This document shows, piece after piece, positions 16,361-18,011 of a DNA stretch of 21,846 nucleotides (position 1 is its first letter; each line of letters begins with the position of its first letter). This DNA is from a virus (Duplodnaviria; Heunggongvirae; Uroviricota; Caudoviricetes): the IMG/VR virus record IMGVR_UViG_2711768075_000012, positions 1 through 21,846 of that record; one strand, given 5' to 3'. Both the position numbers and the translations under genes were made by a program. The notes under the pieces are model-generated. The model searched no databases and was not told the DNA's origin. It saw only the letters and a list, made by a program, of their open reading frames with translations.

Positions 16361-16855
16361 ATGGATCAAGAGTTAAAAAATCTGACGCTGAATATCAGTC
16401 AACTGGCGGCACTGTCAGGTGTACATCGCCAGACTGCTGCGGCAAGGCTGCAAAATCTACCCGTTGCAGGGGGGCATGAAAGCAACCTCAAGCTTTATCG
16501 GGTGGTTGATATTGTGTCGGCATTTCTGGCATTACCACCGCCGGTTGCAGAAGGCGAAATGGACGCGCATGAGCGCAAAGCCTGGTATCAGTCTGAACGT
16601 GAGCGTCTTAAGTTCGAACAGGAAACGGCACAACTCATTCCGGCCAGTGATGTCAGACGGGAGTTTGCCATCTGGGCAAAAGCGGTCGTGCAGGTGCTGG
16701 AGACATTACCGGATATTCTTGAACGTGACTGCGGTCTGCAGCCTGCCGCTGTGAGCCGTGTTCAGTCCATTATTGATGATCTGCGCGATCAGATAGCCCT
16801 GCGGGTGACCGAAGCAGGTGCGGATGATGAGGAGGAATTACAGCGGGAGGAGTAA
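16361..16855 (+). CDS. nu1: terminase small subunit (Nu1-like), 164 aa
   Basis: N-terminal HTH-like LNISQLAALSGVHRQTAAARLQNLPVAGG and acidic C-terminus, analogous to lambda Nu1. GGAG RBS. Stop overlaps the large-subunit start. Confidence 0.6.
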   Translation: MDQELKNLTLNISQLAALSGVHRQTAAARLQNLPVAGGHESNLKLYRVVDIVSAFLALPPPVAEGEMDAHERKAWYQSERERLKFEQETAQLIPASDVRREFAIWAKAVVQVLETLPDILERDCGLQPAAVSRVQSIIDDLRDQIALRVTEAGADDEEELQREE

Positions 16856-17850
16856 TGCTGAATCAGGAAACCGCAAAGGCAGCACGAACCGATTCAGGTT
16901 ATATCCTTCGCGCACCGAGACGAATGCGGGTTGCTGATGCCGTTGCTCAGTATATGCGGGTGCCCATGGGGGCAGGGAACTCAGTCCCGTGGGATCCGCT
17001 GGTGGCACCGTATGTTATTGAGCCGATGAACTGCCTGGCCTCGCGTGAATACGACGCAGTGATATTTGTTGGCCCGGCACGAACCGGCAAGACTATCGGC
17101 CTGATTGACGGCTGGGTGATTTACAACGTGATTTGCGATCCTGCTGATATGCTGATCATACAGATGACGGAGGAAAAAGCCCGCGAACACTCCAAAAAAC
17201 GACTCGCCAGAACGTTTCGCGTCAGCCCGGAAGTGGTCAGTCGCCTGAGTCCGAACAAAAATGACAACAACGTTTATGACAGAACATTCCTTGCTGGTAA
17301 CTACCTGAAAATCGGCTGGCCGTCAGTCAATATCATGTCCTCATCAGATTATAAATGCGTCGCGCTAACGGATTATGACCGTTTTCCGGAAGATATTGAT
17401 GGCGAGGGGGATGCTTTCTCTCTTGCCTCAAAACGTACCACAACATTTATGTCCAGTGGTATGACGCTGGTGGAGAGTTCCCCCGGCAGGGATGTGAAGG
17501 ATGTGAAATGGCGACGGACTTCACCGCATGAGGCTCCACCAACCACGGGGATACTGTCGCTCTATAACCGTGGCGATCGCCGTCGCTGGTACTGGCCTTG
17601 TCCACACTGTGGTGAGTATTTTCAGCCCTGCGGCGATGTGGTTGCTGGTTTCCGTGATATTGCCGATCCCGTGCTGGCAAGTGAGGCGGCTTATATTCAG
17701 TGTCCTTCCTGTTCAGGACGGATTATGCCTGAACAAAAACGTGAGCTGAACGGACGTGGGGTCTGGTTGCGGGATGGTGAATCCATCAATGCGGATGGCA
17801 GTCGTTATGGTGATCCCCGACGCTCACGTATTGCGTCATTCTGGATGTAG
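16855..17850 (+). pseudogene. A: terminase large subunit (lambda gpA family), apparently C-terminally truncated at 331 aa
   Basis: Walker A-like VIFVGPARTGKT and the Zn-ribbon-like WPCPHCGEYFQPCGD (compare lambda A ...ACPHCGEE...) identify the N-terminal ATPase half. gpA-family proteins are ~640 aa, but this frame ends at 17848-17850 and is followed by AT-rich DNA and an integrase gene. Confidence 0.55.
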
Positions 17851-18011
17851 GGTACATTTCTTACCTGTTTTTATGTTCTGGTGTCGTTTTGTAGTCTTTT
17901 CAATGAGTTGTGATTTTTTGTGTTTCCTCTCTTTACTTGATAATGAGTTAGTTTATCGCTTGTTATCGACTTGAAAGGACTACATGACGGACTAAAAAAT
18001 GAGGGCGATAG

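Follow-up and report, generated by a model that had tools for sequence, protein, structure and literature searches.

Why does a phage large terminase gene end at about half its length, exactly where an integrase-bearing segment begins? The question is raised by a stretch of 21,846 nt of Caudoviricetes DNA (IMG/VR record IMGVR_UViG_2711768075_000012, positions 1 to 21,846), here called the window, in which the large terminase gene (terL) stops at position 17850 and a tyrosine integrase gene (int) starts at 18012. Our reading, to which we assign a probability of roughly 0.85, is that this junction is the left attachment site (attL) of an approximately 10.6-kb satellite, a phage-inducible chromosomal island (PICI) of the helper-embedded type with a P4/CP4-57-like integrase, inserted in the gpA terL of a lambdoid prophage. 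Sequence comparison documents the insertion with its core and stop codon, shows that terL is restorable, and establishes which genes, captured late genes included, the element holds and that the arrangement recurs. In what follows attR is the right junction, attB the empty target, attP the site of the free element, and a composite is a helper prophage that carries the satellite. The features at the junction are these.

16361..16855, + strand: helper small terminase gene (terS), DUF1441 family, 164 aa (Pfam DUF1441, E=2.7e-41; PHROG 141 'terminase small subunit', E=1e-73)
16855..17850, + strand: N-terminal part of terL, the helper large terminase gene, with ATPase and Zn ribbon, ending at a TAG created by the junction
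17841..17847, no strand: attL crossover (overlap) core CTGGATG, the sole block common to attL, attR and attB in six composites
17848..18011, + strand: element-derived attL arm, with the TAG stop at 17848-17850 and candidate arm-type repeats TTATCGCTT (17953-17961) and TTATCGACT (17963-17971)

The terL open reading frame (ORF) encodes 331 aa with a single complete GpA_ATPase domain (Pfam, residues 41-304, E=1.5e-72), a Walker A motif GPARTGKT at residues 73-80, and the Zn-ribbon motifs CPHC at 249 and CPSC at 283; the GpA_nuclease domain is not found in this product by Pfam. ORF length, Pfam and motif positions agree with the first-pass annotation, made from the letters alone, which reported that ATPase and Zn ribbon are kept and that the protein stops at 331 aa. 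It should be noted that the length of about 640 aa given there for homologues fits lambda-type gpA and not the intact allele of this gene. The window represents an E. coli lambdoid prophage whose positions 1239-17853 match a prophage of E. coli TF5 at 99.0% identity, the match ending at 17853. The TF5 prophage has an uninterrupted terL of 700 aa, with GpA_ATPase at 41-304 and GpA_nuclease at 326-644, and the window product is identical to its first 331 residues at 330 of 331 positions. Alignment places the cut after Met331, at 47% of the length of the intact protein and six positions into the GpA_nuclease profile, i.e., at the start of the nuclease domain.

The missing part is found in related genomes. 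In E. coli EJN001 the window junction is present at 99.5% identity and is followed by a 10,609-bp element, and directly after this by the terL nuclease half, which starts at residue 331 and is identical to TF5 TerL at 366 of 371 positions. The complete operon for head and tail follows 3′ of the nuclease half, with genes for the portal, a protease-capsid fusion and the tail. The terL 3′ half directly follows the element in five E. coli genomes and one Salmonella genome, together with a repeat of the att core, and RefSeq annotates both terL halves as pseudogenes in carrier genomes. The empty site, the terL 3′ half behind the element and the att repeat bear out the earlier suggestion of a PICI-like satellite integrated in a prophage packaging gene.

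Attachment sites were aligned from six composites (EJN001, O121:H19, O157:H7, O111:H8, SCU-171 and one Salmonella enterica genome). attB reads GCGTCATTC TGGATG GAGGGTCCGG, attL reads GCGTCATTC TGGATG TAGGGTACATTT, and attR reads CTTCTTCC TGGATG GAGGGTCCGG. Only YTGGATG is common to attL and attR. The base before TGGATG (position -1, C or T) is identical in attL and attR and tracks the helper Phe codon, TTC or TTT; the base after the core (+7) is T in every attL and G in every attR. This pattern is as expected from a tyrosine recombinase with a 7-bp overlap region. The attB and attP junctions of the satellite were taken as GCGTCATTCTGGATGGAGGGTCCGG and TTACTTCTTCCTGGATGTAGGGTACATT, and the expected form of attR as TTACTTCTTC(C/T)TGGATGGAGGG. 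The element-derived T after the core makes a TAG directly following Met331, so that attL reads TGG ATG TAG. There is no replacement sequence in attP, and terL is thus disrupted until excision; precise excision would rebuild the intact gene. Within the motif SRIASFWM, where the GpA nuclease domain begins, the core takes in the third base of the Phe codon and the whole of the Trp and Met codons. As Trp and Met are single-codon amino acids, a helper that keeps the Trp-Met dipeptide keeps the exact core. From this we infer that the target in this gpA subclade cannot drift by synonymous change, its core being the only two non-degenerate codons. No tRNA gene is found in the window, and the att site is thus not tRNA-derived.

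The left arm of the EJN001 attP, which lies outside the window, displays TATTGCTT at -120, TTTTGCTT at -108, TTATCGCTT at -98 and a P4-arm-like GGGGGCATA at -58. Repeats of the TTATYGCTT type are positioned at about -120, -108, -98, +111 and +121 from the core, and are candidate arm-type integrase-binding sites.

Two deviant insertions were seen. At the O121:H19 locus (15985-16000 and 26180-26195) and in IMG/VR contig L041 the junction is shifted by one base and attL is frameshifted; in the O121:H19 lineage attL gains a T, attR is without one, and the terL fragment reads through 18 extra codons. The shifted O121:H19 junction fits a slipped-register strand exchange between a T-type attP and a C-type attB. 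The other is an off-target insertion of the satellite by pgrR in the E. coli RM10410 chromosome (about 1518120-1519519; IMG/VR contig L027), one of 34 junctions, where only TTTGGATG is in common with the normal core.

Downstream of the junction the window displays the left part of the satellite. UK_Dog_Liverpool, cited below together with EJN001, holds the closest relative of this satellite (97.8% identity over 16146-21846, variable slot included).

18012..19250, + strand: satellite tyrosine integrase gene, 412 aa, P4/CP4-57-like family (Pfam; NCBIfam PRK09692)
19263..19466, + strand: candidate AlpA-like excisionase/activator gene, 67 aa (PHROG 66 'excisionase and transcriptional regulator', E=9e-7)
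19480..19500, + strand: terminator-like hairpin after the int-alpA pair, with an 8-bp stem, 6 GC pairs and a T tail; consensus match only
19525..20106, + strand: Bro-N protein gene, the 'Bro zone' (Pfam Bro-N, E=1.8e-18; PHROG 2593 anti-repressor)
20108..20801, - strand: variable accessory slot, with a 147-aa ORF (20323-20766, - strand) and a 64-aa ORF (20798-20992, - strand) that overlaps its right edge
20986-21015, + strand: promoter-like site, the best sigma-70 match in the region (10/12)
about 21132-21335, + strand: Icd-like gene, start of the rightward replication operon (annotation from UK_Dog_Liverpool and EJN001)
21328-21648, + strand: conserved 106-aa hypothetical gene (PHROG 15327, E=2e-71)
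21328..21846, + strand (span with the 106-aa gene): start of a DUF4222 gene, truncated where the window ends; gene order as in EJN001 and UK_Dog_Liverpool

The 161-bp spacer between terL and int (17851-18011) has a GC content of 0.354 versus 0.531 for terL, as the first-pass annotation had noted in calling it AT-rich. The integrase displays the Pfam domains Arm-DNA-bind_3, Phage_int_M and Phage_integrase, so that the earlier call of a P4-type integrase stands in the form of a P4/CP4-57-like enzyme. The accompanying call of AlpA holds in part: the 67-aa protein matches PHROG 66, but has a weak match to Pfam HTH_17 and falls under the threshold of Pfam Phage_AlpA. It co-varies with the integrase across relatives, and the Providencia homologue is a Phage_AlpA match; through this chain of homology the protein is a candidate AlpA. 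The ORFs of int, the alpA-like gene and Bro-N are open. The Icd-like protein of the window is 84% identical to that of Eco567.11capE, a satellite described below.

The variable slot is common to UK_Dog_Liverpool and does not align with the EJN001 satellite, where a SWIM zinc-finger gene sits. The translation of the 147-aa ORF has hydrophobic stretches at both ends and gives no match in Pfam, PHROG, PADLOC or NCBIfam. Other satellites have a SWIM zinc-finger gene or YlcI/YnfO-family genes in the slot, and in the window terminator-like hairpins lie just upstream of the slot ORFs (20108-20992). The first-pass annotation had raised the carriage of anti-phage hotspots; PADLOC gives no match for the satellite ORFs of the window, i.e., no recognised anti-phage system is present in that part of the element. 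Immunity RNAs of the C4/isrK type have been reported in satellite Bro zones (PMC10111431). None is found in the window satellite, and the two Rfam matches fall in the helper early region.

The complete element is seen in EJN001. From the left, its order is int, the AlpA-like gene, Bro-N, the variable slot on the opposite strand, the Icd-like gene, a small hypothetical gene and DUF4222; to the right follow a primase, a small hypothetical gene, SSB, a ClpP-protease/major-capsid fusion, a DUF1441 TerS homologue and a 93-aa hypothetical gene. The core genes are co-oriented with the helper late operon, with int, alpA and the primase on the + strand like terS and terL. The satellite TerS and protease-capsid fusion are 67% and 57% identical to their helper counterparts. 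No lysis or tail genes are annotated in the EJN001 element; nor are portal, head-tail connector or terL genes, as judged by annotation and not by a profile search of every ORF. A further feature of the window has counterparts in this element:

16144..16215, + strand: helper cos-like sequence, a GC-rich 72-bp block about 145-215 bp upstream of terS

The EJN001 satellite has two cos-like copies, at 28248-28320 and 30782-30860, that are about 92% identical to the helper 72-bp block. The block is plausibly cos, given its position and the published cases of 11capE and EcCICFT073. The two satellite copies lie 2.5 kb apart and flank the protease-capsid gene; they recall the numbered cos sites (cos1) of EcCICFT073.

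Judged by its sequence, the window configuration represents the helper-embedded type of PICI (HE-PICI), a kind of satellite that has already been published. The class was named by Tommasini, Mageeney & Williams in 2023 (NAR Genom Bioinform; PMC10111431), with Eco567.11capE of E. coli NRG857c as its founder. The four-zone plan (int-alpA, Bro, replication, captured late genes) is found in both 11capE and the present satellite. Homology between the two extends over the Icd-like, DUF4222, primase and SSB genes and a small hypothetical gene, and the EJN001 satellite is 94% identical to 11capE at the nucleotide level over 2.3 kb from primase to SSB, in the same order. Both capture a helper-type capsid gene, have cos-like copies and show rare off-target chromosomal insertions. 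As in HE-PICIs, the interrupted gene, here terL split at codon 331/332, is co-oriented with int, alpA and primase.

Several features differ from 11capE. The window integrase is only 25% identical to 11capE Int (85 bits), and the HE-PICI survey kept integrases with at least 400 bits to that protein (PMC10111431). Apart from a stretch of 31 aa, the AlpA-like proteins show no relationship either. The window-type element targets a gpA-family terminase, cut at about position 6 of the GpA_nuclease profile, whereas the terminase sites among the 14 published HE-PICI sites are all in Pfam Terminase_1 (132, 245/246) (PMC10111431). The term 'GpA' does not occur in the accessible portion of the text and supplements of that paper, and neither the window attL sequence nor a gpA site is present in its complete attL and attR files (PMC10111431). 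A doubled attP motif, TGTATTGC at -81 and +132, was reported as unique to HE-PICIs (PMC10111431). No copy of this motif (tgTGTATTGCantgTGTATTGCa) with at most 1 mismatch is found in the arms described here, the sole such match lying inside the int coding sequence at +253; the TTATYGCTT-type repeats take the analogous place. Among its captured genes the window-type element has a ClpP-protease/capsid fusion, to which some variants add a DUF1441 TerS.

By gene order the satellite follows the four-zone plan of Gram-negative PICIs, as represented by EcCICFT073 (Fillol-Salom 2018, PMC6092414; 2019, PMC6739421). These share with it int and alpA at the left end, rightward unidirectional genes, a primase-based replication module, and cos-type packaging by a lambdoid helper, which in the present case is suggested indirectly by the cos-like copies and the captured late genes. 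A TerS-like DNA-binding protein able to redirect packaging is Rpp in EcCICFT073 and would be the DUF1441 TerS homologue here. The EJN001 element also falls within the size range of Gram-negative PICIs (about 10-15 kb), has its own replication module, and is without lysis and tail genes. However, classical PICIs occupy chromosomal sites never used by prophages and act on the helper in trans only, whereas the window-type element lies inside the helper terL.

A mechanism may be proposed in which timing, read-through transcription, packaging and interference are modelled on PICI biology and on the 11capE experiments. In the latter the composite excises and replicates first and the satellite excises later; passive replication and late read-through transcription were proposed as cis effects (PMC10111431). 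The integrase would recombine YTGGATG in the satellite attP with the same heptamer in the helper terL, and would so split terL into an ATPase half and a nuclease half. Upon prophage induction, Q-dependent late transcription would pass terS and the terL N-terminal half and enter int and the alpA-like gene. Such read-through fits the arrangement of terminators, since the interval 17850-18012 contains no terminator-like site, and a strong one is reached only beyond alpA, at 19480-19500. Precise excision of the satellite would then rebuild terL, and TerL would be made only at that point, so that packaging of either genome could start only after satellite excision. Before TerL appears the satellite may be replicated with its own primase and SSB, and its own protease-capsid fusion may be expressed, joined in some variants by a satellite TerS homologue. 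Its cos-like copies of the helper site suggest that satellite DNA would be packaged by the restored terminase of the helper, and, as the satellite encodes no TerL, its own excision would be the precondition for its own packaging. We propose that the helper is in this way delayed and exploited, and that the satellite settles only in cells with a suitable helper. The result resembles a logic gate at terL: the satellite needs helper TerL for packaging yet would itself block TerL production.

In regulated gene integrity, also called active lysogeny, an element interrupts a gene and its precise excision restores it; examples are Listeria phi10403S in comK and SpyCIM1 in mutL. The concept is cited in the HE-PICI paper (PMC10111431). 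The window-type element likewise interrupts terL, with excision as a possible switch. Here, however, the interrupted gene belongs to the helper phage, and the switch would serve the satellite and not the host.

The arrangement recurs. The integrase and arm are found in 90 of 5426 complete E. coli genomes at a nucleotide identity of at least 94%, including many O157:H7, O121:H19, O111, O145:H28 and O45:H2 strains, and the uninterrupted 200-bp target region (attB) is present in 1334 of the same 5426. A 601-bp query across the terL-integrase junction found at least 34 records in E. coli, an undercount, since diverged terL alleles fall under the coverage cut-off. Five E. coli composites show both ends, and all have the terL N-terminal half, int, the protease-capsid gene and the terL C-terminal half in this order; at least three helper backgrounds are represented among them, and some of these helpers are decayed. 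Salmonella adds a further case. An attL 22-mer is present in 34 IMG/VR contigs, 32 times in terL, once at the shifted junction and once off target. The 32 terL junctions represent at least five allele families, all ending in ...SRIASFWM. The 22-mer has no match in the GTDB species representatives, a result of little weight as that set holds one genome per species.

Of the alternatives, the one that survives best accepts a real site-specific insertion but regards the composite as a fossil, with satellite and/or helper now immobile and the split terL a pseudogene without a regulatory role. We consider this a minority possibility, though one to be taken seriously, and several observations weigh in its favor and against an active element. 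UK_Dog_Liverpool, the closest relative, has lost attR, the terL C-terminal part and the head genes, and the right end of the window element lies outside the window, so that the window composite may be a dead remnant. Insertion sequence (IS) elements and frameshifts are present in the O121:H19 and SCU-171 composites, as is a stop inside the helper capsid gene; in O121:H19 both IS elements and the capsid stop mark the helper as decayed. The TerS homologue is missing from several satellite variants, and the free attP (a 29-mer with Y) has no match in IMG/VR or in the JGI metagenome contigs. Among published HE-PICIs many helpers are truncated, and virions could not be recovered in the 11capE study (PMC10111431). 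Against the fossil explanation, int, the alpA-like gene and Bro-N are open, and the terL N-terminal half is nearly identical (330/331) to an allele of functional length. That the satellite is found in at least five families of terL alleles, and once off target, speaks for recent mobility of this satellite family, and EJN001 has a complete composite. The deletion in UK_Dog_Liverpool (23160-26078) extends from the satellite's last gene to within a tail-fibre gene and takes away attR, the terL C-terminal part and the head genes in between; on sequence grounds this satellite is stranded.

A second alternative concerns the class of the element: it could be a P4-like satellite, a class that the first-pass annotation had also mentioned, or a capsid-forming PICI (cf-PICI), and not a Gram-negative PICI of the helper-embedded type. 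The integrase belongs to the same broad family as that of P4 and is closer to P4 Int (33% identity) than to 11capE Int. The C-terminal domain of the primase is 50% identical to that of P4 alpha, tandem arm-type repeats flank the core as in P4, and there is one P4-arm-like GGGGGCATA. In a tblastn search with all P4 proteins, however, the satellite gives matches only for int and part of alpha. The P4-like core of SatelliteFinder comprises psu, delta, sid, alpA, int, epsilon and alpha; sid, psu, delta, epsilon and the cI RNA gene have no homologues here. Moreover, the satellite's helper is lambdoid and not P2-like, and its target is a phage gene and not tRNA-Leu. The P4 label is thus reduced to the integrase and part of the primase. 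As for cf-PICIs, the element does encode a capsid protein and a TerS, but these satellites carry a complete head and packaging module of capsid, portal, connectors, terS and terL (Alqurainy et al. 2023). With no portal, connector or terL annotated, the element is not of that class. Gene order and the 94% identity of the replication module link it instead to the 11capE-type PICIs, and both assignments to other classes are highly unlikely. EcCIEDL933 was considered as a window-type element and rejected, as it is a cf-PICI.

A third explanation, also put forward in the first-pass annotation, holds that a deletion fused a degraded prophage with a neighbouring, unrelated integrase island, the junction at 17850 being accidental. 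Its only support is that the window does not reach the right end of the element. The left junction refutes it there: base for base, the same attL is found in many genomes with different helpers, the junction is a 7-bp repeat that recurs at attR, in six genomes attR is contiguous with the terL C-terminal half, and the empty site restores a continuous 700-aa ORF. An accidental fusion is therefore very improbable at this junction; at the right end, beyond the window, a deletion fusion may have occurred, UK_Dog_Liverpool having lost attR and the helper head genes. A naturally split terminase of about 330 aa, with ATPase and nuclease as separate proteins, for which ORF length alone would speak, is scarcely credible in view of the intact 700-aa gene with both Pfam domains in a 99%-identical prophage, the 1334 genomes with an uninterrupted site, and the pseudogene calls for the halves in RefSeq.

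The relationships of the integrase were also considered. Thirteen homologues of the window integrase were sampled for genomic context. All 12 homologues with 44-75% identity have phage late genes immediately upstream, in the same orientation; a homologue at 41%, Pectobacterium IntA, is chromosomal. Eight genera are represented by the late-gene homologues (Escherichia, Salmonella, Klebsiella, Buttiauxella, Raoultella-type, Enterobacter, Pantoea and Providencia), and eleven of their contexts are itemised here.

Salmonella, 75%: gpA terL interrupted, as in the window, at the FWM site and with the TAG there
Salmonella, 62%: portal and S78 protease/capsid gene upstream
E. coli, 59%: lambda-like tail gene upstream
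Buttiauxella, 57%: lambda-type gpA cut at the homologous (A/S)FHIWSA motif
Klebsiella, 55%: lambda-type gpA cut at the homologous (A/S)FHIWSA motif
Raoultella-type, 51%: 153-aa capsid fragment upstream
E. coli, 50%: scaffold region upstream
Enterobacter, 49%: baseplate genes upstream
E. coli, 49%: HNH and TerS genes upstream
Pantoea, 45%: terminase and portal genes upstream
Providencia, 44%: tail-tip genes upstream

The late-gene neighbours thus include gpA terL of two types, and also portal/Mu-F regions; the sample is small, and truncation of the upstream gene was verified for the gpA cases. Eighteen sampled relatives of the window integrase all have at most 90 bits to 11capE Int, and the homologues sampled for context are at most 26% identical to it. 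In a rough neighbor-joining tree without support values the late-gene clade of the window integrase groups with the chromosome-targeting IntA-type and P4 integrases, which are closer to it than 11capE Int is, and 11capE Int falls on a separate branch with a chromosomal prophage integrase. Scans of genome and viral contigs with the integrase gave, among the matches listed, mostly proteins of 34-43% identity from unrelated bacteria. The window integrase probably represents a second lineage specialised on prophage late genes, one that lies outside the 2023 HE-PICI survey.

HE-PICIs were first described in 2023, so far in one paper and for one integrase clade. The locus described here adds a case in which helper embedding goes with an integration module unrelated to the published one, and in which the target, the gpA-type large terminase, is absent from the published list of sites. 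If the second lineage is real, helper embedding either arose at least twice or is far broader than the single published clade, and the targeting of late genes is either convergent or a much broader strategy. In that case terL, capsid, portal and tail 'pseudogenes' should be re-read as possible satellite switches and not as decay. This would bear on prophage annotation, on predicting which prophages produce particles (Stx phages and their relatives), and on engineered satellite delivery vehicles. About one complete E. coli genome in four has an intact target region in the gpA gene of the type that accompanies a DUF1441 terS, and satellite carriers include many Shiga-toxin-producing lineages (O157:H7, O121:H19, O111, O145, O45).

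Some further features of the helper prophage may be mentioned. A tandem of C4 antisense RNA (82 bits) and isrK (59 bits) is matched by Rfam at 5741-5929 (+ strand), in a helper gene with Rha/Ash domains (5381-6544). C4 and isrK are immunity RNA elements of the P4 type; here they belong to the helper early region, not to the satellite. A 214-aa ORF (11871-12515, + strand) with a GC content of about 0.38-0.40 and no match in Pfam, PADLOC or NCBIfam is flanked by the Q antiterminator and the lysis genes, a position typical of morons. An ORF of at least 277 aa runs off the window start (1-834, - strand). It has a restriction-endonuclease domain of the Mrr_cat type (E=1.5e-12), and PADLOC gives a weak match to PDC-S02; this segment is not common to the TF5 prophage, and the ORF may be a defence cargo gene of the helper. 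The helper prophage of EJN001, which differs from the window helper at its left end, carries the anti-phage sirtuin gene dsr1 beside its integrase (2932-6759).

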